Notes: generated by a model from the sequence alone, not told the origin. 64,000 bases of DNA from Alphaproteobacteria bacterium (GCA_017642585.1 JAGCOR010000026.1:7776-71775), one strand, 5' to 3'; shown: positions 31,258-63,500, counted from the stretch's first letter. Program-made: numbers and translations.

Positions 31258-32481
31258 TTATATTAACATTTCTTCGTGTGCCATTTGTGCAATCGGGGCA
31301 ACATATTTTAATTCAGCATCAGAATGCAAAGATATTTGTTCTATCAATCCGCGTCTGGATAATATTTGCAATCCACGTTCACACATAGGCTTTATAAATT
31401 CGTGTAACAGGCGACCATATGTAGCACCTAAAATTCTAACCATATCTGAATTGCGTGCCAATATTTCAGTGGCGGTCATTTCTTTGTCTGATAACAACCC
31501 CAACCTGTCCGCCAATAAAGTGTGTCTGATTCTGTCGCGTAAATCGCGTAATACAATTTGCGAAACATCAAAATCAGCACCACTGGATAATGGGGTTAAA
31601 CCTGAACTGCCCACAGCTTTTGGAATAATTGCCCCCGGTGTTAAATTTATATTGGACAGATTTATAACACCATCATCATCCGCCTGCCATATACCGCTGA
31701 CCGCGATAGTCGCATTTTTTAAAACTAATTCCACAACTTTGTTGGCTGTTTTGATATCTGGCAACGCGCGCAATACTGGTCCACGACCATATGTTTCACC
31801 ACTGACCAAAGACCAACGGAAAATTATATATGGGTTGGTTTCAAATGTTCCACGTGAAACAATATTGTTTTCAAAATCGCCACCTACATCCAACCACGCA
31901 GTAAAATCATTTCCATCTAAACATTGAACCAATTTAATTGGTGTGTCTGGGTTGTTTTTTATAGTTTCCTGTAATTGTTTTGGAAAAACAAAATGCGGAT
32001 ATTTTTCAACAATTTCATTTGCAGGCATAGATGTCGTATGAAATACCATTCCCGGCAACAAAGCGATATTTGTCATAGGAATCGCAGTGAATGAAAATGC
32101 AGAATCTGCACCGATTGGATTTTCTGCCATAAACAAACAAGCAGTTCCCAACACAACCAAATCAATATAGCATTGATGAATTGTCGTATAAAAATTTGAA
32201 TCATTTAAATGTGCACGAAAAACAGATGTTGCATGTTCTGCATCTGGGGATAAATCACTTTCTTTGATAAAATTCACCCACAAAGATTCAGGTGGGGTCA
32301 ACAAAGAATACATAGAAGCAGCCAAATTATCCACTGCATCTGCCGCAGTCGCGTCAAATAAAGTTGCTGATTCTGTATCGTCCATTGGAATTGTGTATCG
32401 CATTGCTGTTTTCCAACGATTTAACCATATTTCGCGTTCATTTAATGCGCGTTTATATAATTGCATAAGATTTTTTTGCAT
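31258..32481 (-). CDS. T7 gp8-like head-to-tail connector (portal) protein
   Basis: RWKTAMRYTIPM...NLAASMYSLLTPPESLW and GETYGRGP align by eye with T7 gp8 (CAQYTIPSL...NLASKLMLALFPMQTW, GESYGRS, as recalled); 407 aa. Confidence 0.7.
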   Translation of the reverse strand: MQKNLMQLYKRALNEREIWLNRWKTAMRYTIPMDDTESATLFDATAADAVDNLAASMYSLLTPPESLWVNFIKESDLSPDAEHATSVFRAHLNDSNFYTTIHQCYIDLVVLGTACLFMAENPIGADSAFSFTAIPMTNIALLPGMVFHTTSMPANEIVEKYPHFVFPKQLQETIKNNPDTPIKLVQCLDGNDFTAWLDVGGDFENNIVSRGTFETNPYIIFRWSLVSGETYGRGPVLRALPDIKTANKVVELVLKNATIAVSGIWQADDDGVINLSNINLTPGAIIPKAVGSSGLTPLSSGADFDVSQIVLRDLRDRIRHTLLADRLGLLSDKEMTATEILARNSDMVRILGATYGRLLHEFIKPMCERGLQILSRRGLIEQISLHSDAELKYVAPIAQMAHEEMLI

Positions 32482-32498
32482 TTAATTTCCTTTTGTTT

Positions 32499-33347
32499 TT
32501 ATATTTTGAAATCTGTGTTTGCATGTATCAGTTTGTTGCCAAACGTCACAGGTCTGATTGTGCCAGGATTCATCATCAAAGCCCCTGCAACCGCATCCAA
32601 ACCGTCATCATGTTCTGTGGAACCAATCGGTGTCCAAGCCAACATTTCTGACAACAACATTGTTTGTTTAATTTTGTTGTGCATAAATAACCTGCCCGTG
32701 TTTAACACAGGTTCTATGGCATTTAAAATTCTGGTTTCTTTCTTGGTGTGATTTGCAATTTGAACTATGTTTATTTGCAGATTATGTTTATCGGCAACAC
32801 GTCGCATTATTTCAGGCAACGCATTACCCAGTCCGTTTATTTCTATCCCCACACGATATATTTTATGTTTTTGCATAAAATCTATAATTTTGTCGCATTG
32901 GGTAGACAAGGGATGTAAATCATCATCGTCTACAACCATATACATAATGTCATGAACAAAAACGGTTTTGTTTTTATCATCCCTGTACACTAATACACAT
33001 ACACTGCCATCTGCCCTGTTGTATCCAGATGACGGATCCCAATACATTGAAACCCCAGTTATACAATGTTGCCCGATTCGACATAATTTTGTATCGAAAT
33101 CATCATCATAAAACTGTAAAGCCCCTGGATCCAAATAAACACGTTCTTCGGGGACATATTCCAACATCATTTGGGCTGAAAAATGTCTGGGGCCGACAAT
33201 TCTTTCCAGTTCATGTATTTTTTCGATTGGAAACATTTCTGGCCATGCTGAATTTCCAGCACTGTCAACAATAGGTATCTTTAATTGTTTATAGCCACTT
33301 AAAAAATGTATTGAATTATTAAAATTTTCGTTTAATCTAAAAGACAT
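32499..33347 (-). CDS. large terminase subunit, C-terminal nuclease fragment (T7 gp19-like)
   Basis: SAWPEMFP, GPRHFSAQMMLEYVP, MYWDPSSGYNRADGSVCVLVY and HDDGLDAVAGAL match recalled T7 gp19 IWPALYP, GKAGFTLQFMLNPNL, VIDPSGRGKDETGYAV and HDDRLDALALGI; possible own start MSFRL at 33347 with a GGAG Shine-Dalgarno (track ORF extends to 33527). Confidence 0.75.
   Translation of the reverse strand: MSFRLNENFNNSIHFLSGYKQLKIPIVDSAGNSAWPEMFPIEKIHELERIVGPRHFSAQMMLEYVPEERVYLDPGALQFYDDDFDTKLCRIGQHCITGVSMYWDPSSGYNRADGSVCVLVYRDDKNKTVFVHDIMYMVVDDDDLHPLSTQCDKIIDFMQKHKIYRVGIEINGLGNALPEIMRRVADKHNLQINIVQIANHTKKETRILNAIEPVLNTGRLFMHNKIKQTMLLSEMLAWTPIGSTEHDDGLDAVAGALMMNPGTIRPVTFGNKLIHANTDFKI
33270..33282. repeat. 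left copy of a 12/13-bp direct repeat AATAG(G)TATCTTT flanking the cassette inside the terminase gene
   Basis: Near-identical copy at 36659-36670; both lie at the homologous break point of the terminase coding sequence. Confidence 0.4.
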
Positions 33348-34896
33348 GAACTTTACTCCAAAAACATTACCAATGAACCTGGAAGCAGAACAAGCAGTTC
33401 TGGCTGCCGTTTTTACCAGCAGTCGTGCACTGGAATTGATATCTGATTTCTTGTTGCCGGAACATTTTTCACACCCTGCGCACCAAGAAATATACAGATA
33501 TGCCATGCGTGTATTTGCAACTGGCAAGATTGTTGATGTAATTTCTGCAAAAAACTATTTAGAACAACAGGGCGCATTGGAAAGTGTTGGTGGACCTGAT
33601 TATTTGACTAAATTAGCATCTGCGGGTGCAACGGTTGTAAATGTTGAACATTATGCCCGTATAGTTTTTGATAATGCCCGCCGTCGTGATTTAATCAATA
33701 TTGGTCAATCTATTGTTGATAACGCATATCAAGAAGATTTGGATGTAACCGTTGATAACCAGGTTGAAACTGCTGAACAGAAATTGTTTAATTTGGCATC
33801 TACTGGTCAATCTGAACAAAATATGGTATCTTTGGCCCAGGCATTAAAAGGTGCTTTGAAAGAAGCAGAATATGCCTATAAAGCCGAAGGCAAATTGTCA
33901 GGTTTAACCACAGGTTTGGATGAACTGGATAAATCTATCAGTGGTTTGCACCATTCCGATTTAATTATTATAGCTGGTCGTCCAGGTATGGGTAAAACCA
34001 CATTGGCTATGAATATTGCGTTTAATGCGGCCAATGCTATATACAACAAACGCGCAAATGATAAATACCAAGGCGCTGTTATATTCTTCAGTTTGGAAAT
34101 GTCCAACGAACAATTGGCGGCACGTGTTTTGTCATCTCAATCAAAAATACCTGCATCCAGAATTCGTGACGGTCATTTAACCGACGAAGATTTTATGACG
34201 ATGTCACAATATTCAGACGCCCTGTCAAAATTACCATTGGTTATTGATGATTCTGCTGATGTGTCTGTACCTATGATAAAAACCCGTGCACGCAGAATTG
34301 CCCGTAAATTCGGCGGGGTTGCATTAATTGTTATCGACTATTTACAGTTGATGAAATTGCCAGGCGGCAAAAGCAACGAAAACCGTGTGCAAGAATTGTC
34401 TGAAATCACCCGCAGTTTGAAAATCTTAGCAAAAGATTTGGATGTTCCTGTGATTACCCTGTCACAGTTATCACGTAGTGTTGAACAACGTGATGATAAA
34501 CGCCCGGTATTGTCAGATTTGCGTGATTCTGGTTCTATTGAACAGGATGCGGATATCGTTATGTTCACTTTCCGTGAAGAATATTATCTGGACGGACACG
34601 CACCAAGCAATAAATTATCCAGTAACGCATCTGAAAATTCTATGCAACATTACCACAATCGTCTTGAACAATCCAGAAACAAGGCGGATGTTATCATTGC
34701 TAAAAACCGTCATGGTAAACCAGAAACTGTGCATTTAAGCTTCTTTGGCGAATATTTCTTGTTCGATAATTTGGCACAATTTAATATGCAACCTGCCCCC
34801 CAGGATATGAACGAACAACCTGTATTTGCGCCAACACCATCACCTGACGAACAAGCGGATTCATCTGTCGGTGATGCACCTGACGACATGCTTTAA
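33346..34896 (+). CDS. dnaB: replicative DNA helicase (DnaB family) with a C-terminal acidic/Pro-rich tail
   Basis: N-terminal LEAEQAVLAAVF..., Walker A GRPGMGKTTLA, Walker B IVIDYLQLM, SRSVEQRDDKRPVLSDLRDSGSIEQDAD; embedded in phage DNA on the strand opposite the structural genes. Confidence 0.85.
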   Translation: MNFTPKTLPMNLEAEQAVLAAVFTSSRALELISDFLLPEHFSHPAHQEIYRYAMRVFATGKIVDVISAKNYLEQQGALESVGGPDYLTKLASAGATVVNVEHYARIVFDNARRRDLINIGQSIVDNAYQEDLDVTVDNQVETAEQKLFNLASTGQSEQNMVSLAQALKGALKEAEYAYKAEGKLSGLTTGLDELDKSISGLHHSDLIIIAGRPGMGKTTLAMNIAFNAANAIYNKRANDKYQGAVIFFSLEMSNEQLAARVLSSQSKIPASRIRDGHLTDEDFMTMSQYSDALSKLPLVIDDSADVSVPMIKTRARRIARKFGGVALIVIDYLQLMKLPGGKSNENRVQELSEITRSLKILAKDLDVPVITLSQLSRSVEQRDDKRPVLSDLRDSGSIEQDADIVMFTFREEYYLDGHAPSNKLSSNASENSMQHYHNRLEQSRNKADVIIAKNRHGKPETVHLSFFGEYFLFDNLAQFNMQPAPQDMNEQPVFAPTPSPDEQADSSVGDAPDDML

Positions 34897-34964
34897 ATTT
34901 ATTTCTTGCCAAACTTATATTTTTTGACTATTATTTTGTCAACACATCTTCAAGGAGGTTTAAT

Positions 34965-35972
34965 ATGGCACAAGAAGAAATCATATTTCCTAATAACATA
35001 CGAAACATACGTGCTGCCAAGGGTATGAAAATGACCGAACTGGCCAGACGTGCCAATTTATCTTTGTCTGCTGTTTCCAAGATTGAAAAAGGCGTCAGAC
35101 GATTAAACCAAAAACAATTATTGAATGTGTGCAGCATATTGGGTTGCAAATTATCTGATATATTTATTCACGAATCAGATACTGTTGCAGATCAATGGCA
35201 AAACGAAATTAAACGCCGTTTGACTGACAATGAAAAAAGCGGTTTGAAAGTTTTCGGTTCTGGTTTGCGTAAAATCCGCCAACGTGCAGAAAAAACTATC
35301 GCAGAAACCGCGAAGGCTGCAAAAATGACATTGTCTGTTTATCATAAAATCGAAGTTGGTCAACGCGAAATTTATGAAAACGAAATTGAAGTTTTGGCAA
35401 AAACTTTTGGTTATACCACCGAACAATTATTTGATGAAATCGCAAATCTGTACAAGGCTGGCGAATTAACAAAACAAATCAACAAAGTTAAAGAACGCGT
35501 AAAATCTGTTTTGGAACCGGGTAATCCTGTATCTGGTTTGGACATCCAAGACGGTTTATATGGCGCACAATTATATGACAATGCCAGAAAAAAATTGGTT
35601 CCTGTGTTTGGAAAACCAAATGGCAAAGAAATTTCTTTGAAAAAATCAGACGAAAATATGATTGTCGCACCAAGTACATTGGAAGGTTTGGTCAGTGTTT
35701 ATGCTGTCGTTCCAAATGCAAAACGTTTGGGTGGTTTTATCCCAGAAACTTCTTATGTATTTGTTGATGCTGATTCAACACCAGAAGTTGGTGATTTGGC
35801 AATGTTCATTGATGCAGATTTTTCAAAAATGACATCTGATGATGTCGCATCTGCACAAATTGCCGTTGTGCGCCAGGATACACATGGTAAAAAATATGGT
35901 CATGTGTCCAATCCAGACGACAAAATCAATTATAAAACTATGCACAAAGTTATTATGATTGTAATGAAATAA
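34965..35972 (+). CDS. XRE-family regulator with two HTH domains and a degenerate CI/LexA-like C-terminal domain
   Basis: Two HTH_3-like segments (MKMTELARRANLSLSAVSKIEKG; KTIAETAKAAKMTLSVYHKIEVG); the C-terminal beta-rich domain lacks the S24 Ser nucleophile. Confidence 0.6.
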   Translation: MAQEEIIFPNNIRNIRAAKGMKMTELARRANLSLSAVSKIEKGVRRLNQKQLLNVCSILGCKLSDIFIHESDTVADQWQNEIKRRLTDNEKSGLKVFGSGLRKIRQRAEKTIAETAKAAKMTLSVYHKIEVGQREIYENEIEVLAKTFGYTTEQLFDEIANLYKAGELTKQINKVKERVKSVLEPGNPVSGLDIQDGLYGAQLYDNARKKLVPVFGKPNGKEISLKKSDENMIVAPSTLEGLVSVYAVVPNAKRLGGFIPETSYVFVDADSTPEVGDLAMFIDADFSKMTSDDVASAQIAVVRQDTHGKKYGHVSNPDDKINYKTMHKVIMIVMK

Positions 35973-35997
35973 CAATGTCAATTTGTAGGGGGGGCAT

Positions 35998-36663
35998 ATG
36001 CAACAACAAACCGCACATACGATTGCACAGCGTTTATTAAACCTTTATCGCCAAGCACATGTTATTAATGGTGGTTGGATGGCTGTTAACCAGGTTTTAT
36101 TGAACGAATCAAACGATCCCCGTGTCATAGAAGAACTTGAAAAATTGCCTACAGGAAAAAGGCTTGCTATGCATATCAGCAATTTAAAGTCTGGCAAAAC
36201 CCCTATGAACACCATTGATAAAGATTTATTGCCATACGGCGGTTTAATCATGGGTCAAGATACAATTATAACTTTAACGCCCGATGAATTAAAAGAGTTA
36301 CAAACCGCACTGGCATCTTTTGAACCAACCACCGAAGGATTAAACAAGATAAAAAAATTATCATGTGTTAAAAAATTCGGTAACGACTGGTTATACAGCA
36401 TCAAATCGGCATTAAACGACCACCCAGAAATAGCATCAAAATGGGCTGATGTTGTTCGTACAGAACGTGCTTATACTATGTGGAACAGTGCGCGCCAATT
36501 GATATCCGAAGATTTAACAGAACGTGACCGTGCCAGAATCCAGGTTGACATGCCAGATTTTGAAACATATTTACCTATGTTTGGCGAACCAGGCAAAGAA
36601 GTGTTGGCAAAACTGCGTACATTTATGTCTTCGGTTGCACCTGCTGTCAAATCTGATAAATAG
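35998..36663 (+). CDS. hypothetical protein (possible helicase-loader or accessory protein, speculative)
   Basis: 221 aa ORF, last gene of the cassette; its stop overlaps the terminase N-fragment stop. Confidence 0.35.
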   Translation: MQQQTAHTIAQRLLNLYRQAHVINGGWMAVNQVLLNESNDPRVIEELEKLPTGKRLAMHISNLKSGKTPMNTIDKDLLPYGGLIMGQDTIITLTPDELKELQTALASFEPTTEGLNKIKKLSCVKKFGNDWLYSIKSALNDHPEIASKWADVVRTERAYTMWNSARQLISEDLTERDRARIQVDMPDFETYLPMFGEPGKEVLAKLRTFMSSVAPAVKSDK

Positions 36664-37285
36664 TATCTTTGGTGTGTGGTGTCCCTATAAAAATCATTGT
36701 TCCGCGCGGGGATAAAATAAAATCTAATTCCCGTAATCTTTCACGAAGATTATTTCTTTTTTGCAAAGTGTTGCATGTATTTGGGACTTCTACGTCATCG
36801 CATATAATTAAATCAGATCTCATACCTGTTATATTTCCAGAAATTCCCTGACATATAACCGAAGGTTCCCTGATTCCTATAGGGCGTTTAATAGTAATTT
36901 TATGTGTTCCCCACTCTTTTTTGACATCAGGCAAAATATCACTGCACCACGGATGGTTTTCCAAAATATTTTTTACATGTGAAACCATACGCGATGACAA
37001 TCCAGATTCTGCTGACAATATCAATATTCTGGTTTCTGGTCGATAATATAATACACACGCTGCGAAAATCCCAACAACAGTTGATTTTCCAGAATGCCTG
37101 AACGCTGTCAATAATCCACGTCGCGGTTCATTATTAAAAACATCCACTAAAAATTCCAGTATCTGTTTATGGTGTTTCGGCGTTTCAAAACCCAAAATTT
37201 TATTCCAAGCATTTAAGAAATCAAAGGCTTCCGTAATCGTCAGATTGTTCATTGTCTGCTGTTTCTGTAACAGAACCATAATCAT
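36647..37285 (-). CDS. large terminase subunit, N-terminal ATPase fragment (T7 gp19-like)
   Basis: LTAFRHSGKSTVVGIFAACVLYYRPETRILILSAE, GISGNITGMRSDLIICDDVEVP and MIFIGTPHTKDTIY match recalled T7 gp19 [47 protein letters not shown] and VIYLGTPQTEMTLY; ends 3 codons after the conserved GTPxT motif. Confidence 0.8.
   Translation of the reverse strand: MIMVLLQKQQTMNNLTITEAFDFLNAWNKILGFETPKHHKQILEFLVDVFNNEPRRGLLTAFRHSGKSTVVGIFAACVLYYRPETRILILSAESGLSSRMVSHVKNILENHPWCSDILPDVKKEWGTHKITIKRPIGIREPSVICQGISGNITGMRSDLIICDDVEVPNTCNTLQKRNNLRERLRELDFILSPRGTMIFIGTPHTKDTIYQI
36659..36670. repeat. right copy of the direct repeat AATAGTATCTTT
   Basis: See 33270..33282. Confidence 0.4.
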
Positions 37286-37769
37286 TTATTAAATTTGGTA
37301 ATGCCTGGTCCAGAACATTAAGCAAATTATTATACAGCCCCAATACAGAACCTCCTGATAATTTGTCTTCTATTAACCCCAGCAAATAATTTATTTGATA
37401 CAATACATTGTTGTGTGTGTTTGCCCATTGACTTAAATCTATATTTATACTTTGAATATCATGCAACGCAGCGATTAAAAAATTAAAATCAGAATTCAAA
37501 TCTTCTGGGTCTATCTTTGCAGTCGGTTGATAATCGATTACTCTGGATAATGATATTTGCCGGAAAATATCTATTTGCGTTCCGTTTGCTGGTGCAGTTG
37601 CAAATACCACCAAACCACCATTAAAATCATTATCAGGGTTCACATCATATTGCGAATCATCTAAAACAACATTGTCTATCGCGACTTTAATATCTGCATT
37701 TTGAAAAAAAGGGAAATTAAAAACAAATTCCGTATCATTGCCATTTCCCGTATATGATATTTTATACAT
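37221..37769 (-). CDS. tail fiber N-terminal (tail-attachment) domain protein, T7 gp17-N-like stub
   Basis: MYKISYTGNGNDTEFVFNFPFF resembles T7 gp17 N-terminus VLTYQLDGSNRDFNIPFEY (recalled); only 182 aa, no receptor-binding region. Confidence 0.55.
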   Translation of the reverse strand: MYKISYTGNGNDTEFVFNFPFFQNADIKVAIDNVVLDDSQYDVNPDNDFNGGLVVFATAPANGTQIDIFRQISLSRVIDYQPTAKIDPEDLNSDFNFLIAALHDIQSINIDLSQWANTHNNVLYQINYLLGLIEDKLSGGSVLGLYNNLLNVLDQALPNLINDYGSVTETADNEQSDDYGSL

Positions 37770-37778
37770 GAATGCCCC

Positions 37779-38126
37779 CTATCCTGCTATTTTATCTATC
37801 TGCGACAGCCACTTTTTCAATAAATTAGGTTTTGTTGTTTTTATCTTTTTTAAATTTTCTATGCTTGTTTTATTTTTTTCATCATATGGTTGTGCAGTTT
37901 CATCACGCAATCTTTTTAATACCGCGTTTTCAGACAAACCATCACCAGCATTGCCAGACGCTCCGTATTTTGCGCGTTGTCCCGCCAATACTTTTTTTAT
38001 TAAATTATTTTTCGCTGTTTCATTTTCAGCCATTTGTTCCAATATTTTTTGACGTTGGTTGCCTGCTTTCTTCTTAGATTCTTGATAATCCAGAATTTGC
38101 GTTACGTCAGATACCAATTGTCCCAT
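37779..38126 (-). CDS. hypothetical lysine-rich protein (phage module)
   Basis: 115 aa ORF between tail tubular B and the fiber stub. Confidence 0.35.
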   Translation of the reverse strand: MGQLVSDVTQILDYQESKKKAGNQRQKILEQMAENETAKNNLIKKVLAGQRAKYGASGNAGDGLSENAVLKRLRDETAQPYDEKNKTSIENLKKIKTTKPNLLKKWLSQIDKIAG

Positions 38127-38144
38127 AAAAAACTCCTTTTGTTT

Positions 38145-39857
38145 TTATATTGAATACCAACCCTCTGTAGTCACAGACAATATTGTCGCGCTTAATTGTT
38201 CACTGCTGGACAAAGTCCACAAAGGTTGAATTGTATCGGCCTGTATACCCAGCAAATTTAATGACAAATCCCCGCTGTAACCAAGGTTATCGTTTGAATA
38301 AACAACATTTGGTATTTCAATTCTGTAATCATTTGCAAATAATGTTTTTGTGTTTATCACACGCACAGATATTTTTCTGGTTCGTATTTTCTTTGGACAA
38401 TGTCCATTTACAACCATAGGCACAGCCGATATTTTATATGAAAAACCATATTGGGTTGCGTCTTTCAAACAAGATGCATCAAATTTTTCAAGATAATGAT
38501 TGCCTTTTCTTTTTACAATAACATAAGTTGAATCATCTAATACACAAACATATTTGAATTCGCCGTCTGTTTTATATGTTCCCCACGCAGAAATATCTGT
38601 ATTTGGATATTTATGTAATACGGCCATATATCCGCTTTGCATAACAACAAACAATTGATGTGTGTTTTGGTTATAAGAAACACTGACCGGATTTTGCATA
38701 AGATGTTTTGCATACAAACATAAATCTGTAGCGTTGTAATTTTCACCCAATGCATCTAAATCTAATTCACGAATATCTTTGCCTGATTCAGAAATGAAAA
38801 CTGTGCTACCTTCTATTTGCTGTGGAGGCAAATATCTTGTCGCAATACTGCCGACAGATGTATGTTGTTTAATATTGACATTTGATGGTGTTAACGGGGA
38901 ATTTGAAATCGACCATTCGCCCACAGATGTCAAAATCTGCAACGAATCACTGCTGACAATTGTACAAATTTGATGGTGTTGTGCAGATAATAAAGCTGCA
39001 TAAATTGCTTCATCATCTAAACCTGTGCCAGAATCAAAATTATGAAAATCAGAAACTTTGGACATCCATATACAATTCGGCAAAGCATGTGTTCCGCCAA
39101 AAACTAATCTGTTTTGATGGAAAGATACACATGATGGCCATCCGCGTCTGTTGTTAAACACAGATTCATACCAATCGTATATTGGACCTTGGGCTAATGT
39201 AAAATTACCATTTGTATAAACAGTAACAGCCGTAGCACTTTGAACGCTGGCAACAACCCATTGTCTGTTGTCCACATATAATCTTTCACCCACAGCATTT
39301 TCAGGCCAAAAATCTGCATTTGTTGTAAATGTAGCGTAATTGGTATCTATGTCGCTGCTGGACATTGTTATAGTGATATTTTTCGAATCTTCAAAACGCG
39401 TAAACGGTATATTTACACTGGCATCTGAATTGGAAGAAAAATTAAAATCAGTAAAACCAAAACCACTGGCTGTTTTTGTAAATATCACAGGTTTATAATC
39501 TGGATGAACAAAAAATATAGAATTAAATCTTTGTGCATATTGTAATTTTGCCAAATCAGCACGTTTCCACGGCGCAATCATTGTCGTTATTTTGGTATCA
39601 TTACAATATATATCCATAGAAATATTGTATATAACCAACAAATATTTTTCTGATTCTGTAATTGGAAACGGCACAATTATTGCATCTTGGTATGTATTAC
39701 CTATGCTTTTTAACCCACTGCGTCTGGTTAAACCGCCTGATTTTAATACATCTGTATTTTCCAACACAGATAACCCGTTTGCATTATTCAATGCGTAAAA
39801 TTCAGAAGACACTTCCCCACAAGCAAATGAATTTTGTGTTTTAATAAAATTACCCAT
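38145..39857 (-). CDS. tail tubular protein B (T7 gp12-like), shortened
   Basis: FHQNRLVFGG...SKVSDFHNF resembles the gp12 FFFRNRLGFLSG...AKYFNFY segment (recalled); sits downstream of a gp11-like gene; 570 aa. Confidence 0.55.
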   Translation of the reverse strand: MGNFIKTQNSFACGEVSSEFYALNNANGLSVLENTDVLKSGGLTRRSGLKSIGNTYQDAIIVPFPITESEKYLLVIYNISMDIYCNDTKITTMIAPWKRADLAKLQYAQRFNSIFFVHPDYKPVIFTKTASGFGFTDFNFSSNSDASVNIPFTRFEDSKNITITMSSSDIDTNYATFTTNADFWPENAVGERLYVDNRQWVVASVQSATAVTVYTNGNFTLAQGPIYDWYESVFNNRRGWPSCVSFHQNRLVFGGTHALPNCIWMSKVSDFHNFDSGTGLDDEAIYAALLSAQHHQICTIVSSDSLQILTSVGEWSISNSPLTPSNVNIKQHTSVGSIATRYLPPQQIEGSTVFISESGKDIRELDLDALGENYNATDLCLYAKHLMQNPVSVSYNQNTHQLFVVMQSGYMAVLHKYPNTDISAWGTYKTDGEFKYVCVLDDSTYVIVKRKGNHYLEKFDASCLKDATQYGFSYKISAVPMVVNGHCPKKIRTRKISVRVINTKTLFANDYRIEIPNVVYSNDNLGYSGDLSLNLLGIQADTIQPLWTLSSSEQLSATILSVTTEGWYSI

Positions 39858-39875
39858 GAAATCACCCCTGAATTA

Positions 39876-40394
39876 TTAAAATCTTGAATTTATCAAAGAA
39901 AAATTATCTATGTTTGATTGATTTAAAATCGTGCTGTCTATGAATTTTGCAGATTGATATTCTGATTCATACAAAATATTCATCATTTTAAAGATATTCA
40001 TATCTCCAATCAAAGGAACACAAAATTCCACAGCCAATTTAGATGCAACCAATGATGCAAAATAGCCCGGAAAATTTTCTGGTTCTGTTTTTACAATCGC
40101 AATAATTTCTATTTTTTCGGCTGCGGCAATTATCTTGTTTCCAACGATTTGACCAGGATGTTTAATTATGCGTAATACATTGGTGGGTATAATAAAATCA
40201 CCATTTGAATCTTTGGTTAATTCTATGTTTTGTAATGCAAAATGCCATGGAAATGTCGACAACAAAGTATCAACAACCGAATCAAATAAACTTCTGGCCA
40301 ATTGAGCAGGTGCAGAATCTTCACGCAAAGATTGAATTGGCTTTTCGCCTAACTTTAACAAAGCCATTGAACATAAATCTATTTTTGTAAACAT
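39876..40394 (-). CDS. tail tubular protein A (T7 gp11-like)
   Basis: IDLCSMALLKLGEKPIQSLRED..AQLARSLFDSVVDTLLSTFPWHF versus recalled T7 gp11 [41 protein letters not shown]; 172 aa. Confidence 0.6.
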   Translation of the reverse strand: MFTKIDLCSMALLKLGEKPIQSLREDSAPAQLARSLFDSVVDTLLSTFPWHFALQNIELTKDSNGDFIIPTNVLRIIKHPGQIVGNKIIAAAEKIEIIAIVKTEPENFPGYFASLVASKLAVEFCVPLIGDMNIFKMMNILYESEYQSAKFIDSTILNQSNIDNFSLINSRF

Positions 40395-40407
40395 ATTTTA
40401 TTCCTAT

Positions 40408-40440
40408 GTAAAAAGGGGCCGTATAAAACGGCCCGGTTAT
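40408..40440 (-). terminator. strong rho-independent terminator downstream of the capsid gene region (T-phi-like position)
   Basis: CCGGGCCGT TTTAT ACGGCCCC TTTTT on the minus strand. Confidence 0.5.
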
Positions 40441-40467
40441 AAAATAATTAACAATTTGATTTGTTTT

Positions 40468-40698
40468 TTAAGACAAAGCAGCAACTGTTATAGCATCAGC
40501 TGTAACACTTAATACTTTGATTGATGTTCCATTTGAACCATTAATTAAAATGATATCGCCTGTATTCATCAAAGATTTTACACTGGCAAAATATCCAGAT
40601 GCAGTTATTGTCGCCAATGTCGCATTTTCTTTATAATGCCACAATGTAAAACCATTTGCGTATGCAATCACAGACAAATTTTTATTTTGAAATGCCAT
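40468..40698 (-). CDS. hypothetical small protein downstream of capsid
   Basis: 76 aa ORF with no motif, tightly packed. Confidence 0.3.
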   Translation of the reverse strand: MAFQNKNLSVIAYANGFTLWHYKENATLATITASGYFASVKSLMNTGDIILINGSNGTSIKVLSVTADAITVAALS

Positions 40699-40734
40699 TT
40701 GATTTTCCTTTTGTTTTATTTAAGTTATGAATGT

Positions 40735-41562
40735 TTAGGCTGCATCATCATCACATTTAATACGAACGATACCTTCTGCATCAATCAACACAGCGCCTTG
40801 GGACATACTGTTGCTGATGAAATGCGCAGCACGTTCGCCATGCCATGTAATATCAGTTTTAACTTCTTGACCACAGGCATGACCAATGCTGGATGCATGA
40901 TAAATGAAACAATCACGATCATCTGTGTTTGCCAAAGGCAAAGAATTGCACAGAATCCAATTGATACCCAACCATCTTCTTGATTCACAACCATCAACCA
41001 AAGGTGTTGAACCACCGACATAATCAGCAGATACAAATTCATTCATACCCATCAATTCATTCCATTGATGAACACCAACGACTGCATATCTGCGACCGTC
41101 ATCTGGAACGTCATTTTCGTTTAATTTTTCAACAGCACTCATAATCAATGCTTTTGTTAAACCTGTTGAATAATCGCCAACATATTGGGTTGCATTGTTC
41201 ATCGCAGCGATGATTAATTCATCTGTTTTACGACCCAATGCATATGCACCGGCTGATGCAACAACACGACGTTCATCAACATTGGTTTTCAATTCATCCA
41301 AAGCATCAATCCAATCGCCTGCGTAATAATCTTGCAAAGTGCATTCCACAGGTGTGTGATTCAAATTCATCACTGGAACAATACCATGACGTGATTTAGT
41401 ACTGGCAATTCCTTTGCCAACTTTTTGGAAAGTTGTTGAAGTTCCAACAACGCCAGATTTACTGCGAATTGTGGAACGCAATTTTGTGCCCATTTGCTGA
41501 TAAGCCAAATGAACATCTGCTTCAAATTGTTTTATAAACACTTGATCTACAGATAAAGACAT
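40735..41562 (-). CDS. major capsid protein (T7 gp10-like)
   Basis: VFIKQFEADVHLAYQQMGTKLRSTIRSKSGVVGTSTTF versus recalled T7 gp10 LFLKVFGGEVLTAFARTSVTTSRHMVRSISSGKSAQF; start MSLSV at 41562 with an AAGGA Shine-Dalgarno (track ORF extends to 41655). Confidence 0.65.
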   Translation of the reverse strand: MSLSVDQVFIKQFEADVHLAYQQMGTKLRSTIRSKSGVVGTSTTFQKVGKGIASTKSRHGIVPVMNLNHTPVECTLQDYYAGDWIDALDELKTNVDERRVVASAGAYALGRKTDELIIAAMNNATQYVGDYSTGLTKALIMSAVEKLNENDVPDDGRRYAVVGVHQWNELMGMNEFVSADYVGGSTPLVDGCESRRWLGINWILCNSLPLANTDDRDCFIYHASSIGHACGQEVKTDITWHGERAAHFISNSMSQGAVLIDAEGIVRIKCDDDAA

Positions 41563-41793
41563 AAAAAATCCTTTTTGTTTTTCTTGTAAAAAATTACGCC
41601 AAAACGGCAACATATTTTGAAAAATGGTTATACGAAAAATCGCGCCATAAAACAAAATTCAAAAGTCAGGGTCCACAAAATGGATTATCCAATAAAAGAT
41701 TCAGTCAGACACAAAATCTGACTGAAAATTTTATCAAAAAACCCCAAAACACTTATGCTTTGGGGTTAAAAATGATACATAATTAATGTATTA

Positions 41794-42114
41794 TTATTTT
41801 TTCTTTGCAACTTTTTTTGCAGGTTTTTTTGCAGCAACTTTTTTTGCAGGAGCTTTTTTAGCAACTGGTTTTTTTGCTACAACTTTTTTTGCAGGAGCTT
41901 TTTTAGCAACTGGTTTTTTTGCAACAACTTTTTTTGCAGGTGCTTTTTTAGCAACTGGTTTTTTTGCTACAACTTTTTTTGCAGGTGCTTTTTTAGCAAC
42001 TGGTTTTTTAACTGCAACTTTTTTTGCAGGTGCTTTTTTTGCTGCTGGTTTTGCAGCTACTTTTTTAGCAGCTGGTTTTGCGCAAGCACATTTTTTCTTA
42101 GAACCAAAGAACAT
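41794..42114 (-). CDS. lysine/alanine-rich histone H1-like repeat protein
   Basis: 106 aa, about 45% Lys, with repeating KKAPAKKVVAKKPVA units; strong AAGGAGA Shine-Dalgarno 6 nt before the ATG. Confidence 0.6.
   Translation of the reverse strand: MFFGSKKKCACAKPAAKKVAAKPAAKKAPAKKVAVKKPVAKKAPAKKVVAKKPVAKKAPAKKVVAKKPVAKKAPAKKVVAKKPVAKKAPAKKVAAKKPAKKVAKKK
41812..42070. repeat. 45-bp tandem repeat, ~4.5 copies (coding; encodes the 15-aa KA repeat)
   Basis: Unit GCAGGAGCTTTTTTAGCAACTGGTTTTTTTGCTACAACTTTTTTT repeated at 41846, 41891, 41936 and 41981 with 1-2 substitutions per copy. Confidence 0.75.
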
Positions 42115-42218
42115 AATTCTCTCCTTTTAAGTTTTTGGATAGAACAAAATTATTTTGTTCATACTTTTATTTTATATGAATTAAATAAAATAGTAAAGAA
42201 TAAAAGTTAAAAATTATG

Positions 42219-42875
42219 TTATGAATATAATTTTTTAAATCCGTTTTCTATTTTTCTTACATACTCCGGATCTTGATCACGCCAATATTTTGGATTCTTC
42301 ATCATGTTGCGTAATTCATCATCAGTTAAATTTTCATCACCACTTTTGTTTGTAAAAACTTCTGGTTCCATTGATTGCATCATCTTGTATATGCCTTGAA
42401 TTCCCTGGGGTGTAGAGCATAGTTCATCAAACGCAGATGCAGGTAAAAACTTTTCACCAAATGCATTTATCTCTTTCAATGCATCATTCATTTTTTGTGT
42501 TGAACCAAAAAAATTTTTTAATTCATTTATTGCATTTGTTTCATTTTGCATTTCAAATAAATTTTTTATCGCAGGTTGTAAAAAATCTTCTGCAATTTGA
42601 TAAATTGTTTCAACTTGTTTTGATGTTAAACCAATTTCATGAAATTTTTCACGCACCGATTCGTCATCAAATAAACTGTTTGTTGGATATTCTGATGCGT
42701 TATCCGGTACACCAATTGCGCGATTAAATTTTTGTTTAGTTGAATCATCACTATCCGCAGATGGTACAGATATCATCGTTCCCATCTTTTTTTCTAATTC
42801 ACAATACGATTTAATCAACGCAGATGTATTTAATTCACCATTTTCATTTAGAAATTTTTCTGGAACCTGTTCCAT
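42219..42875 (-). CDS. capsid scaffolding protein (T7 gp9-like)
   Basis: Acidic; C-terminal ELRNMMKNPKYWRDQDPEYVRKIENG versus recalled T7 gp9 SEMIKAMSDPRYRTDANYRRQVEQKV; position upstream of capsid. Confidence 0.55.
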   Translation of the reverse strand: MEQVPEKFLNENGELNTSALIKSYCELEKKMGTMISVPSADSDDSTKQKFNRAIGVPDNASEYPTNSLFDDESVREKFHEIGLTSKQVETIYQIAEDFLQPAIKNLFEMQNETNAINELKNFFGSTQKMNDALKEINAFGEKFLPASAFDELCSTPQGIQGIYKMMQSMEPEVFTNKSGDENLTDDELRNMMKNPKYWRDQDPEYVRKIENGFKKLYS

Positions 42876-43065
42876 TGTTTTTTCCTTTTGTTGAAGATTC
42901 TTGTTTCAAAAAATAGATACCACCCAACATAAAAATTGTTTGCAACATTGAAAAGATATCTTGTTCCCCAATTAAATAAGCACCTATGGCAGAAATTATT
43001 CCAACACTTGAAACGACATAGGTTTTGCGCCCTTTCAAATATCCGCCATTTATAAATTTGTTCAT
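42844..43065 (-). CDS. small membrane protein (hypothetical)
   Basis: 73 aa ORF with one predicted TM helix; overlaps the scaffold start by 32 nt. Confidence 0.3.
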   Translation of the reverse strand: MNKFINGGYLKGRKTYVVSSVGIISAIGAYLIGEQDIFSMLQTIFMLGGIYFLKQESSTKGKNNGTGSRKISK

Positions 43066-43085
43066 AAAAATTCCTTTTGTGTAAT

Positions 43086-43532
43086 TTATAAATAAAATAA
43101 GATATCATCTATCTCTGCAATATAACCACGTGACATGGCCCATTGTGGCATAACATCTGTGTGATGAAATTTAGTAGCACCAAAAACCAAATCTCGCAAA
43201 GCGCCATTCATCATTTTTTGAACAACGCGTAAACACATTTGAAATTTTTTATCTTTTGCATTTACATTTAATAAATGATTTCGTTTTGAATTATCATTTA
43301 ACACTTCAAAAATATTTGCATCATTCGCAATATCTTCAAAAGATTTATCATATTTTATATGTATGTTATAAATCATAGAAGAAAAAGCTTCGACCAAATG
43401 CAGAGATTGTGCCAAAGTTTCTGCGTAAACAATGCGCGATAGTTTATATAATACAATTTTTGTATTATCCGGATTTTCAATCAAAGTTAATTGCATGTTA
43501 AGACCTGTTTGGGTTATAAAAAAAACGCACAA
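43086..43532 (-). CDS. hypothetical protein (first gene of the phage-like operon)
   Basis: 148 aa ORF with no motif. Confidence 0.35.
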   Translation of the reverse strand: MCVFFITQTGLNMQLTLIENPDNTKIVLYKLSRIVYAETLAQSLHLVEAFSSMIYNIHIKYDKSFEDIANDANIFEVLNDNSKRNHLLNVNAKDKKFQMCLRVVQKMMNGALRDLVFGATKFHHTDVMPQWAMSRGYIAEIDDILFYL

Positions 43533-43645
43533 AAAATGTGCGTCATGGAACCAGAATAAAAAAAATCCGCATCTAAATCGCGGACAGAATCTTTATTCTT
43601 GATGTTCATCATTATATCACAAATCGACTATAAAGTCAAGACCAT

Positions 43646-44768: not shown

Positions 44769-45011
44769 TTATAAAGTGTGGTCCGGTGATGGAATAAATT
44801 TAGTAAAATCTTCCAAAGATGCGCCCGTAGATGCCAAAATCTTAGAAATACTGTTTGTAGACGGCCATCTGGGTTGACCTTCTTTGGACCAACGTTTACT
44901 TCTGTTAAATGTTGTTGGATCTAAACCACTGCATCTGGCAAGGCCAGAACAAGACATATGATGTTCCGTTGCAAATTTTTCTATTGCCTGCCATACATCT
45001 TCATGAGTCAT
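44769..45011 (-). CDS. CI/LexA-type repressor N-terminal HTH domain protein (no peptidase domain)
   Basis: MTHEDVWQAIEKFATEHHMSCSGLARCSGLDPTTFNRSKR...RWPSTNSISKILASTGASLEDF: conserved N-domain of alphaproteobacterial S24-family phage-type repressors. Confidence 0.55.
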   Translation of the reverse strand: MTHEDVWQAIEKFATEHHMSCSGLARCSGLDPTTFNRSKRWSKEGQPRWPSTNSISKILASTGASLEDFTKFIPSPDHTL

Positions 45012-50114: not shown

Positions 50115-50537
50115 ATGTATACAGATATTCAAAAACAATTAGATGACATTGAAACAAAAATGTACGCTAAATTGAAAGCAACAAACTCTATTGATGCGGA
50201 TAAAAATGTCATAAACATTGAACTGTTCAAAATAATCGTTCAAGAATCTATTAATTCAATGAAAAAATTAAATTCCCAGGTTGAACAAGACGGTTTTGTT
50301 CACGACAGATATGGTTTTAATATTTTGCAGGCGCGCATTGATTTCTGGACAGAAAAATATATGACGGGTACATTACCTTTCATACAACCGATGATTAACC
50401 ATGAAGAAGAAATATACAAGAAAGGACGCAGACAACCATTCCCTGTCGCATCAAAAATAAAAAGAAGTGTGACTAAATTGTTCAAACGTTCTAAACCAAC
50501 CCCACCAATTTGCATAGAATCTGACAGACAAAGATAA
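50115..50537 (+). CDS. hypothetical protein co-transcribed with the VirB11-like gene
   Basis: 140 aa ORF 17 nt downstream; followed by the terminator at 50536-50560. Confidence 0.35.
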   Translation: MYTDIQKQLDDIETKMYAKLKATNSIDADKNVINIELFKIIVQESINSMKKLNSQVEQDGFVHDRYGFNILQARIDFWTEKYMTGTLPFIQPMINHEEEIYKKGRRQPFPVASKIKRSVTKLFKRSKPTPPICIESDRQR

Positions 50538-60547: not shown

Positions 60548-63500
60548 ATGATGAATATTTTTTTATTATTTTTATCTATGTTTTTTATGATTGGATATTA
60601 TATGATTTCCAGTCCCTCACAAAACCTGGGTTATGACGAAGTTCAATATGAACACCAAAACTCTGAAATGCGGTCTTTGGTTGACTGCGTTGTGGCTAAA
60701 CAAAACGCGTTTATCAATAACGCCCCCTTTAATGACGAATGCGTAAAACGCTATAAAATCAACAGCACAGAAGTTTGTACTGATGAAAAATTTGAATTGT
60801 CCAATTGTTCGGTGGACCCCTACTACGATTTCATCATAACAACCAGCTATAAAATAGATCATTCTCAATACAAAGACGCATTTAGAATTATTGATAAAAC
60901 CCGCCAAGATTTTGGAACTTTGGGTTTATTCATAGATCCAAATGTTATTGCGGCTAATTCTATTGGTAAAAAACTGATTCCAGAATCTGTTATAAAAGGT
61001 GCAGAATTAGAAAACGGTCAAATTGCATATATTATCCAAAATTCTGTCCAAGCATTTGACCCCAGCCAGCCAGATCCAGGTGACGATGACGATTGTCGTT
61101 TCACAATATTTGGTAAGGTCTGTGACGATGTTGAAATAGAGGTTTGCACAGGTAACGAAGTATGGGATGAAGATCAGAAAAAATGTGTAGATCAAACAGG
61201 TTTATGTGAAGCTGGTAAAATCTTATTAATAGATGAAAGTGATAATTCTTATTATTGTGTAGATCCTACAAGCAAAATATGTACAGGTAACACAACATTA
61301 CAATATAATCACAAATTAGAGGCATGGGAATGTATCGAAGTTGAAAACTCTGATGATACAGAATGTGATTTGTCTCAATTTTCTTTAAGATTACACTCAA
61401 CTTTGGATTCTGCTGCCCCAACAGCCCGTATCAGAACCATCAATTGTAATAATTGTGAAAAACGCGTGTTGGATGAATCTACTTGCACCATTTATTGCAG
61501 CCCAGACGCCTCAAAACTTAGTTTGGGCGAATGTTATAATGACAGAAATGTGCCTTTGGCAGATTGCAAAGGCGAAAAACGTGGGGTTTATTTTGGATTT
61601 GCCCCTGGCCGTACCCAATATGCAGTTAATACCAGTACCGCGGACGAATCTTCCCAAAACAGTGATATTATTTTAAATGTAGAAAAATTCTTGGACAAAG
61701 ACCATTTACAAGACCGTTTATTCCACTGCTTTGAATGTGCAAATGGTATGAGTGATCGTTTATCTTTTTCTCCATTTTCTGCAATGTGCAAAACCGAAAA
61801 CGACGAAGATGACGATGATATAGTTTGTGCTGATGACGAAATGATCGCTATAGATCAGAAAACTGGAAAATTTTATTGTGAAAAAATCCCAGAAGAACCA
61901 GACGAACCAGATGAACCTGGTGAACCAGACGAACCTGATGACCCACATTCTTATGGCATATCATTAAGCGCATACAGCGGTATAACCACATACCCAACCG
62001 CAGCAACATTTTATGTTACAGAAAACACTTCTAATGGGGAATTGACTGTACAAACCAGCAATCCAAAGATTGCTACTGCTTCCATCAGTGGCAGTATTGT
62101 TACAGTTAAACCTGTGTCCAAAGGTAAGGTTGCTGTCTATATCAGAAGTGCCGCCAGAGGCAGTTACAATGTTGCTGTTGCTACATATAGTTTGCAAATA
62201 AACGGGGCAAATATTGTTGTTAATGCGTCAGATTTAGTATTGGAATATAACGGAAGCGAACAAAGTTGTGCTAATGTACGTGTAAAAAACCCAGCTACAG
62301 GTGCCAAAGTTGGTTATAGTTTAGTAGAAGGAGGCCCATACAGCAGTGCTCCTGTACTGACAGACGCCGCATCTGTTACTGTCTTTTACCAAGTTTCAGC
62401 CGAAAATTATACAGATTTAACAGGTCGTTATCAATGCACATTGACAGGTGGTCAAGAAGGTGGTGTGGTATTAAGTGCTTCCAGCGGAACAATAACATAT
62501 CCAACAACAACTACATCATTCACTGCATCTTGTTTAAGTGGTGGTACATTCTCTATAAAAAATTCGAATCCAGATGTTGCATCTGCCAATGTTGACAAAG
62601 ACACTGTTACTTTGACATATAACAAATCAGGAACTGCTTACATAACAGTGGATTGTCCCGAATATAATGGTTATTTATCTGCCAATGCAACATACACATT
62701 GACCGTCAAACGAGGTGTAATCGAAGCAACAGCCCAGAACAAAACATTAACTTATTCTGGTTCAGCGCAAAGTTGTGCAAATGTGTCCGTCAAATCACCA
62801 GTTGGCGCCAATGTAACATACAGCACTTCACAAAATGGTACATATTCAAACCAAGCACCTACATTGACAAACACAGGCGACATTAATGTATATTATAAAA
62901 TTACCGCCGATAACTACGAAGACAAGACCGGCAGTTATAAATGCATCATGTCAAAAGGTGGAAACAGCACAATAACTTTAAGCGAATACAGCGGGACAAT
63001 CACATATCCTGAAACCACCACTTCATTCACTGCAACATGTAACAGTGGTGGTGATATGACTGTTAAAAGTGATGATAAATCTATCGCAACAGCCACTATC
63101 CACAATGGTACTGTAACCGTAACATATGAATCTGCTGGTGAAACAACAATTCGTGTTATGTGTGATAAAACTAACAATTATGATGAATCAGAGGCAACTT
63201 ATAACATCGTTACCCAAAAAGGTACATTAAAACCAGAAGTAGACGATAAATACTTAACATATTCTGGTTCCGCACAAAGTTGTGCTAATACATTTAATAT
63301 TAAAGACGTATCATCATTCACTGTCAAATATGCTTCCTCATCAAACGGAACATATTCTTCGAGTGCACCTACCCTGACAGATACAGGTTCTATAAGTGTA
63401 TTCTATAAAATAATTGCGGACGATTACGAAGAATTCTTTGGCAACTATAAATGTACTATGGGCACCGGCGGCAATTCTTTGGAATTAAATTCATACAGTG

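Follow-up and report, generated by a model that had tools for sequence, protein, structure and literature searches.

A conserved Lys/Ala-repeat protein gene between the scaffold and capsid genes of a domesticated T7-like cluster in Candidatus Enterousia

Results and discussion

A small gene encoding a Lys/Ala/Pro/Val repeat protein (hereafter KA) was found to be a genus-wide component of a phage T7-like gene cluster in the chromosomes of Candidatus Enterousia. The gene lies between the genes for a scaffolding protein and a major capsid protein in a 64,000-nucleotide stretch of DNA (the window) from Alphaproteobacteria bacterium (GCA_017642585.1 JAGCOR010000026.1:7776-71775). In each of the 75 informative Enterousia species-level loci, the scaffold gene was followed immediately by a K/A/P/V-rich open reading frame (ORF) with the same orientation. 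An earlier reading of the window from its sequence alone (the sequence-only reading) had proposed a 106-aa Lys/Ala-repeat ORF with a strong Shine-Dalgarno (SD) sequence at this position, and this ORF was confirmed.

A genuine gene with an intact frame across species

A capsid-based scan of one genome per species yielded 80 loci, almost all of them from Candidatus Enterousia or uncultured Alphaproteobacteria of the rumen and of horse, deer, sheep and human gut. Loci were regarded as informative when the contig reached upstream of the capsid gene and the capsid was of the Enterousia type (at least 74% identity); the 75 loci of this kind included two KA ORFs ending at a contig edge, and four other loci were truncated upstream and uninformative. 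The orthologs ranged from 52 to 191 aa in length (median 101), and no two of the 72 complete ones were identical. KA started 92-126 nt beyond the scaffold stop codon and was followed after 209-306 nt by the capsid ATG, the exception being the most divergent locus (L082), in which GNAT-like and membrane-protein genes lie between KA and the capsid gene and KA still adjoins the scaffold gene. A GGAG SD preceded all 72 complete orthologs, and stops were present in the other two sense frames of 72 and 70 of the 72, respectively. In the window, an equally long antisense ORF, open only because the KA repeats contain no Leu and no Ser, overlaps KA; an antisense ORF with an ATG was found in only 23 of 72 orthologs, never with an SD.

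The base unit of the repeat was 15 nt in every ortholog, while the best-scoring period reported by Tandem Repeats Finder differed between species (15, 27, 30, 42, 45, 57, 60, 75, 87, 90, 105, 135 and 174 nt). All of these periods are multiples of 3, and the array therefore turns over continually with preservation of the frame; as judged from these periods, selection is acting on the KA protein and not on the DNA repeat. Variation in copy number between strains, as the sequence-only reading had anticipated, was borne out at several distances in addition to the length range across the 75 species. A species representative (L008) with a capsid protein identical to that of the window (dS, the synonymous divergence, 0.058) differed in the KA gene by in-frame indels of +12 and -15 nt and about ten substitutions, and a metagenome scan with the 36-nt start of the KA gene recovered 25 complete copies representing 20 alleles of 72-111 aa, a set that mixes strains with close species.

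A repeat-induced assembly error, which the sequence-only reading had raised as a risk, was ruled out by seven independent metagenome contigs that encode the identical KA protein and share the gene order, together with the intact orthologs in the 75 species-level loci. A truncated '15-aa allele' on contig L177 was rejected, L177 being a chimeric 1-kb contig. On this comparative evidence, KA is a genuine gene and not an assembly artefact.

Repeat architecture and composition of the protein

The KA protein starts with MFFGSKKKCACAK, continues with (KKAPAKKVVAKKPVA)-type repeats and has KKK at its C-terminal end, so that about 19 pentapeptides of the form xxxKK make up the protein. It has a mass of 10.96 kDa and an isoelectric point of about 11.1, and contains 42 Lys, 30 Ala, 15 Val and 12 Pro residues and no Asp or Glu. 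At the DNA level, a 45-nt higher-order repeat is nested inside the 15-nt array (Tandem Repeats Finder; Table 1). The copies matched at 94%, and their count, originally proposed as roughly 4.5, was slightly higher, at 5.1. AlphaFold2 prediction from the KA single sequence gave a predicted local distance difference test score of 59.6 and a predicted template modelling score of 0.12, with no secondary structure and no folded element; as modelled, KA is an intrinsically disordered polycation of ~11 kDa.

The same organization was found among the orthologs, which on average consisted of 38% K, 30% A, 13% V and 11% P, and in which 1007 of ~1170 intervals between successive KK pairs were 5 residues long. 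Only 8-12 non-repeat residues are found ahead of the array, with a short hydrophobic N-terminus, M-[F/A]-F-x-[F/S]-[K/L]-K, kept among the orthologs. At least one Cys was present in 67 of 72 orthologs and exactly two in 54 of 72, the pair being spaced as CxC, CxxC or CxxxC. The Cys residues were located either in the first 15 residues (36 orthologs) or in the last 15 (31 orthologs), never at both ends, with the pair being N-terminal in one clade and C-terminal in others. The pair might constitute a metal- or disulfide-mediated dimerisation site.

Predicted expression signals of the KA gene

A promoter for KA was called by a consensus scan in the window and compared with 63 distinct upstream regions from other species. 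Its core (TTTACT/17/TAAAAT) is near-consensus for sigma-70, and CTTTACTA-N-TATAAAAT was kept at 80% or more in the 63 regions; promoter activity is thus a prediction from conservation and consensus match. At or near the 5' end of the predicted mRNA lies a palindrome, GAACAAAATAATTTTGTTC, with a folding energy of -5.6 kcal/mol (z -3.5), which was kept in all species with a variable loop length (GAAC..GTTC spacing 11-13) and which in L082 was swapped for AAGATCAT..ATGATCT through compensatory changes. Because the spacing of the half-sites varies and the changes in L082 are compensatory, the palindrome was taken to be an RNA/DNA hairpin rather than a protein operator, and its candidacy as a repressor operator or LexA-like box was rejected. 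Palindromes of the form GAACA-N-TGTTC occur five times in the window, relative to 1.1 expected by chance; the GAAC..GTTC palindromes other than that of KA are located within ORFs, among them two KA-like copies (44947-44966 and 50283-50301). Only seven AAGGAG-N4-9-ATG sites are present in the 64-kb window, the KA SD being among them, and the KA gene is probably highly expressed.

The region downstream of KA was aligned for 71-74 species, and covariation was evaluated with RNAalifold on 71 species. The intrinsic terminator of KA (T1; -16.6 kcal/mol, z -4.3) has a fixed position across species, while the sequence of its stem changes freely (CCCCAAAG../CCCGC../GGGGCCGG..). The hairpin that follows (H2; -16.7 kcal/mol, z -5.9) is conserved in sequence and showed compensatory double changes in 9 of 11 pairs; it has no second copy in the window, the leader of the hydrolase gene at the head of the cluster included, and may be a second terminator or a regulatory or processing hairpin. 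Two further hairpins (H3 and H4) also covary, and in most species an extra hairpin and T run are found just ahead of the capsid SD. Between KA and the capsid gene there is a minimum of one terminator-like hairpin, and there are usually two or three. The interval from the KA stop to the capsid ATG (41563-41793, minus strand; ~230 nt) is conserved and structured, and contains three hairpins with compensatory changes beyond the terminator.

Inspection of the sequence beyond T1 for a sigma-70 promoter of the capsid gene revealed no conserved -35/-10 elements among the 71-74 species; the conserved blocks after T1 covary as RNA stems. Rfam gave no match at threshold in the capsid leader or in the rest of the window, two tRNAs excepted. 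From its structure, the capsid leader may be an antitermination, processing or attenuation element. A related layout is seen in the spacer between birA and the hydrolase gene, where a promoter conserved across species is followed by two terminators. This order is reminiscent of lambda PR'-tR' and suggests that the cluster is under read-through control; the structural genes would then be controlled by terminator read-through, with the KA ORF occupying the promoter-proximal, pre-terminator segment of a capsid operon.

Table 1. Features of the KA locus and the surrounding cluster (window coordinates)
Feature	Position	Strand	Description
KA protein coding sequence	41794-42114	-	ATG start; 106 aa; Lys/Ala/Pro/Val repeat protein
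Base repeat array, KA gene	41811-42079	-	15-nt (5-aa, xxxKK) unit x 18.3; Tandem Repeats Finder
Higher-order repeat, KA gene	41822-42052	-	Period 45 nt, 5.1 copies, 94% matches, score 385; Tandem Repeats Finder
KA Shine-Dalgarno	42119-42126	-	AAGGAGAG, 4 nt ahead of ATG
Palindrome	42142-42160	-	GAACAAAATAATTTTGTTC (AAGAACAAAA-loop-TTTGTTCT); stem-loop at or near KA mRNA 5' end
KA sigma-70-type promoter (predicted)	42169-42197	-	-35 TTTACT (42197-42192), 17-nt spacer, -10 TATAAAAT (42176-42169)
Antisense ORF overlapping KA	41786-42130	+	As long as KA
KA intrinsic terminator T1	41734-41767	-	12-bp G+C-rich stem (41767-41740), then U run
Hairpin H2	41700-41726	-	UUCAGUCAGAU-loop-GUCUGACUGAA, then U-rich tract; sequence-conserved
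Remaining capsid leader	41563-41699	-	H3 (41690-41669), H4 (41647-41625), variable hairpin and T run (41609-41597), SD AAAAGGA
Scaffolding protein gene	42219-42875	-	T7-type, 218 aa, net charge -13; PF05396, E=5.7e-9; immediately upstream of KA
Major capsid gene	40735-41562	-	275 aa, charge -10; PF19821, E=8e-73; phrog_3437
birA-hydrolase spacer	43524-43639	-	Near-consensus TTGACT-17-TATAAT with TG (TTGACT...TGATATTAT), then two hairpin+T7 terminators
Whole domesticated T7-like cluster	31258-43532	-	Three opposite-strand genes inside
Fibre gene	37221-37769	-	182 aa
Split TerL region	32499-37285	-	
TerL ATPase half	36647-37279	-	Walker A and B
TerL nuclease half	32499-33347	-	
dnaB	33346-34896	+	Alphaproteobacterial replicative helicase; NF006606, 592 bits vs 540 cut-off

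The scaffold-capsid slot in related phages

No KA gene was present in the outgroup modules L086, L087 and L089 or in Pelagibacter phage Hodr. The sequence-only reading had described the slot as empty in T7, and in L087 and L089, the closest phage-like relatives (62-63% capsid identity), it was equally empty, with abutting scaffold and capsid genes. In L086 (68% capsid identity) the module is scattered and host genes follow the scaffold gene, and Hodr (41% capsid identity) has a different 191-aa gene in the slot. A scan of IMG/VR with a capsid alignment gave 80 loci, in which no KA ORF was found among ~65 relatives with 45-73% capsid identity, KA ORFs being restricted to Enterousia-type fragments (at least 81%). 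Just upstream of the capsid gene, the IMG/VR relatives had either an empty slot or varied accessory genes, among them GNAT-like genes of 150-159 aa and genes of 84-89 aa and 183 aa. Accessory genes at this position were recorded in L103-L169 (IMG/VR), L082 (8952-9671) and L088 (5461-6036), often GNAT-like and of ~152 aa.

These varied contents among relatives mark the junction between scaffold and capsid as a cargo slot of the phage lineage. The KA cassette, with its own predicted promoter and terminator, its position between conserved phage genes and its absence from related phages, has the attributes of a moron, and as far as is visible it appears to be cargo that became fixed in Enterousia and not phage heritage.

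A vertically inherited T7-like cluster

The window derives from the chromosome of a Candidatus Enterousia-like alphaproteobacterium of the order Rs-D84, in a group with genomes below about 1 Mb. The cluster is flanked by birA and yraN, with frr-uppS-cdsA-rseP-bamA nearby, and birA adjoined the hydrolase gene in 58 of 61 loci. On the minus strand, the gene order is cell-wall hydrolase, a 73-aa membrane protein, scaffold, KA, capsid, a 76-aa protein (p76), tail tubular proteins A and B, a 115-aa protein (p115), a fibre N-domain and the N-terminal half of the large terminase subunit (TerL). These are followed on the opposite strand by a 221-aa protein (p221), a double helix-turn-helix protein (HTH335) and dnaB, and again on the minus strand by the C-terminal half of TerL and the portal. 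The ATG at 41562 was taken as the capsid start, being the one that aligns with phage homologs. The T7-like head-tail set thus consists of scaffold (PF05396), capsid, portal (PF12236), tail tubular A/B, fibre (PF03906) and a TerL with a T7 RNaseH-like domain. No integrase, polymerase, primase, T7 internal core proteins or T7 RNA polymerase were found in the cluster of the window, nor any prohead protease gene or other loading machinery.

TerL is split by a clean break after ...TIYQ, and the two halves, with Walker A and B in the N-terminal half, together cover the intact homolog of L087. The dnaB gene was antisense between the TerL halves in 64 of 64 loci reaching that far; in L082 the halves are adjacent and still separate ORFs. 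The fibre gene encodes only the T7-type tail-attachment N-domain, with no receptor-binding part, and was present in 33 and missing from 37 of 70 species loci; host recognition, if any, must therefore work differently. Median ratios of nonsynonymous to synonymous substitution (dN/dS) against the window were 0.083 for the capsid gene (n=71) and 0.241 for the scaffold gene (n=65), at a dS of 0.55-1.9.

The sequence-only reading had spoken of an 'element', for which a phage or mobile nature did not hold. The gene order is syntenic in about 75 species, and by gene content, synteny and dN/dS, the cluster is an old, vertically inherited set of particle genes, chromosomally fixed and kept by purifying selection, and not a mobile phage. 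In all features visible in the sequence it is like a gene transfer agent (GTA), with chromosomally fixed, phage-derived structural genes, no replication or integration genes, vertical inheritance and purifying selection, and it is a candidate podovirus-type GTA. The literature searched contained no description of the Enterousia cluster. With RcGTA-type elements and FpGTA it shares phage-derived head, tail, terminase and lysis genes, the lack of replication and integration genes, and vertical inheritance under purifying selection, whereas it differs in having T7-like rather than HK97-siphovirus ancestry, a split terminase and the host dnaB inside. To our knowledge, no GTA has an H1-like gene in its head module. 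FpGTA is a podovirus-like GTA-like element of Faecalibacterium, reported as the first of that morphology (PMC12946183).

Outside the cluster, towards the window's end, a tandem repeat with a 9/18-nt unit (CCAGAAGAACCTGATGAA; 61889-61945) would read as acidic/proline units of the type P-E-E-P-D-E and may represent a TonB/TolA-like linker.

Likeness to bacterial H1-like and other basic proteins

The histone H1-like composition claimed for KA by the sequence-only reading was upheld by a match to Pfam HC2 (PF07382; 54.1 bits relative to a gathering score of 40). NCBIfam NF038052 scored 37.6 bits (cut-off 135) and NF038053 (Burkholderiales/Bordetella H1-like) 44.7 bits (cut-off 80), both below threshold, and these similarities are driven by composition. 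Pfam identified no domain in KA besides HC2 and extensin-type low complexity, and PHROGs contained no family for the protein. A homology search against 5.8 billion proteins, also limited by composition, returned among the matches listed KA arrays fused to the known DNA-binding domains HU (P0004), SWIB (P0012) and HTH (P0002), as well as small KA-only proteins of other taxa; one of the latter was found in a host context, next to mnmA. No traceable KA family or homologous source was found among the matches listed, only compositional matches, and the proposal that a host nucleoid gene had been captured is hence unsupported. The arrays in the databases would tie proteins of this kind to nucleic-acid binding, by composition only. 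A KA-only small protein was also seen on a 2508-nt contig (L170, GCA_964500275.1), where neighbouring genes contain many stops under table 11; the organism probably uses an alternative genetic code, and the case shows that KA-only mini-polycations recur in unrelated reduced-genome lineages.

A close resemblance is to the chlamydial Hc2/HctB, in which, as in KA, Lys/Ala-rich pentamers make up most of a protein with no globular domain, encoded by intragenic DNA repeats that are mosaic and vary in number between strains (PMC2848022). In contrast to KA, Hc2 has 165-237 aa, is richer in R/T/S, is expressed late in development and is encoded at a non-phage locus, whereas KA has its own N-terminal motif and terminal Cys pair. 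The KA-Hc2 similarity is compositional, and common descent cannot be claimed from it. AlgP and PhaF of Pseudomonas and the Burkholderiales/Bordetella H1-like proteins are likewise disordered K/A/P-repeat polycations that bind DNA, polyphosphate granules or RNA: the KPAA array of AlgP associates with polyphosphate granules (PMC9239181), and that of PhaF binds RNA (PMC12818456). Unlike KA, these proteins are longer or have a structured N-terminal domain, and have no phage context; the AlgP/PhaF arrangement of a structured N-terminal domain with a C-terminal KPAA array was not found in KA. The C-terminal tails of linker histone H1 and of actinobacterial HU (HupB) share with KA the (A/P/V)xKK-type repeats that neutralise DNA charge. 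KA differs in having neither a winged-helix nor an HU fold, so that, unlike the H1 plan of a winged-helix globular domain with basic tails, the protein is all tail.

Possible roles of the KA protein

The reading that we tentatively favour, by analogy with these proteins, is that KA may serve the cell itself, condensing DNA as a nucleoid-associated protein encoded by a moron. The polyanion bound is most probably DNA, which KA would bind non-specifically by charge, neutralise and condense in the manner of the Hc2, AlgP, PhaF, HupB and H1 arrays. The cassette is autonomous in its layout, which comprises a near-consensus sigma-70 promoter, a 5' stabilising stem-loop, a strong SD and an intrinsic terminator, and KA would be produced irrespective of particle formation, with co-transcription with the capsid operon occurring only upon read-through of the downstream terminators. 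A cell-level role was favoured because of the strong promoter, the 5' hairpin, an SD of the best type in the region and the insulating terminator, because the slot is a moron slot and relatives in the capsid lineage do without KA, and because KA-only and KA-tailed proteins elsewhere are cellular. The apparent autonomy of the cassette and its absence from the ~65 phage contigs lean against an obligatory role in the virion. Prophage morons also have their own promoter and terminator between conserved structural genes, are absent from relatives and occupy slots with varying cargo; KA differs from them in that its host element is a fixed chromosomal cluster, no longer a prophage, and in that the cassette is genus-wide and not sporadic.

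Several points weigh against a cellular role. A protein inside the particle would fit the position in the head module as well, the neighbouring scaffold (-13) and capsid (-10) being acidic, and with no conserved capsid promoter after T1, the capsid operon may begin with KA as its first cistron, in which case they may be co-expressed. The hydrophobic N-terminus and the Cys pair hint at a specific partner, for which a plain nucleoid protein would have no need, and KA-type arrays are also able to bind polyphosphate (AlgP, PMC9239181) or RNA (PhaF, PMC12818456).

That KA is instead a DNA-condensing or counter-ion protein inside the particle, loaded into the procapsid via its N-terminal tag or the acidic scaffold and staying with the packaged DNA, was considered doubtful. 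The placement between scaffold and capsid in the same orientation at all 75 informative loci would be expected of such a protein, and in L082 KA has stayed with the scaffold gene despite the insertion of two genes before the capsid gene. The charges are complementary (KA +42 against the acidic scaffold and capsid), the conserved N-terminal motif and the terminal Cys pair of 54 of 72 orthologs could serve in loading, co-transcription is possible given the lack of a conserved capsid promoter beyond the terminator, and the purifying selection on the cluster implies that particles are presumably made. However, the ~65 related phage contigs, L087, L089 and Hodr are without KA, so that this capsid type packages DNA without it, and the rearranged L086 also has no KA near its scaffold and capsid genes. 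The one, or usually two or three, terminator-like hairpins ahead of the capsid gene, the lack of a prohead protease or other loading machinery in the cluster, and a repeat number that varies freely (52-191 aa) also speak against packaging. Parallels are provided by T4 IPI-III and adenovirus VII/mu, small basic proteins whose genes accompany head genes and which enter the procapsid and stay with the DNA. The T4 internal proteins require a cleavable capsid-targeting sequence and a prohead protease, and are not repeat arrays; KA is unlike them in that no prohead protease is encoded in the cluster and the relatives examined in the capsid lineage have no such protein. The more specific proposal that KA is a protamine- or H1-like component of T7-like GTA particles, loaded by the N-terminal tag, the Cys pair and the acidic scaffold and travelling with the DNA, was judged somewhat less probable again.

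An improbable further explanation is that KA acts on RNA or another polyanion, binding the capsid leader or mRNAs as an N-like or RNA-chaperone antiterminator, activating translation in the manner of PhaF, or organizing polyphosphate in the manner of AlgP. In favour of this are the promoter-proximal position of KA and the terminators and three covarying hairpins that lie between it and the capsid gene; the hydrolase operon has the same layout of a strong promoter, two terminators and genes, suggesting antitermination control. The lambda N protein is likewise basic, disordered and promoter-proximal, with about 107 aa, which was counted in favour of this explanation, as was the binding of RNA and of polyphosphate granules by the KPAA-type arrays of PhaF and AlgP, respectively (PMC12818456, PMC9239181). 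A low-complexity array that expands and contracts freely is, on the other hand, unlike specific antiterminators, and the uniqueness of H2 in the window, with no counterpart in the hydrolase leader, also argues against it. Finally, a non-functional KA (a spurious ORF in a DNA repeat, an assembly artefact or a decaying remnant), for which the low complexity, the equally long antisense ORF and the L177 '15-aa allele' could be cited, is essentially excluded, as the frame is intact in 75 of 75 species despite a dS of 0.55-1.9 in the neighbouring genes and repeat turnover in multiples of 3, the SD, ATG, promoter and terminator are conserved, seven independent assemblies have the identical protein while L177 is chimeric, and the antisense ORF has neither a conserved start nor an SD.

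Implications

Lys/Ala-repeat 'bacterial H1' proteins were already known, while a genus-wide conserved cassette for such a protein within a phage-derived particle cluster was not. If KA is a nucleoid protein, it would be a clear case of a moron turned into a fixed component of cellular chromatin, in genomes under 1 Mb. If it is packaged, it would be the first case of a histone-like protein packaged in a particle derived from a tailed phage, and would belong to a podovirus-type GTA, hitherto undescribed, that has a split terminase and resides in a gut alphaproteobacterium of reduced genome. The notion that DNA condensation in tailed-phage capsids involves no dedicated basic proteins would then have to change, and there would be a handle on how a T7-like GTA treats host DNA. 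Either way, the locus points to a domesticated T7-like particle system, so far undescribed, in Alphaproteobacteria of the ruminant, equine and human gut.

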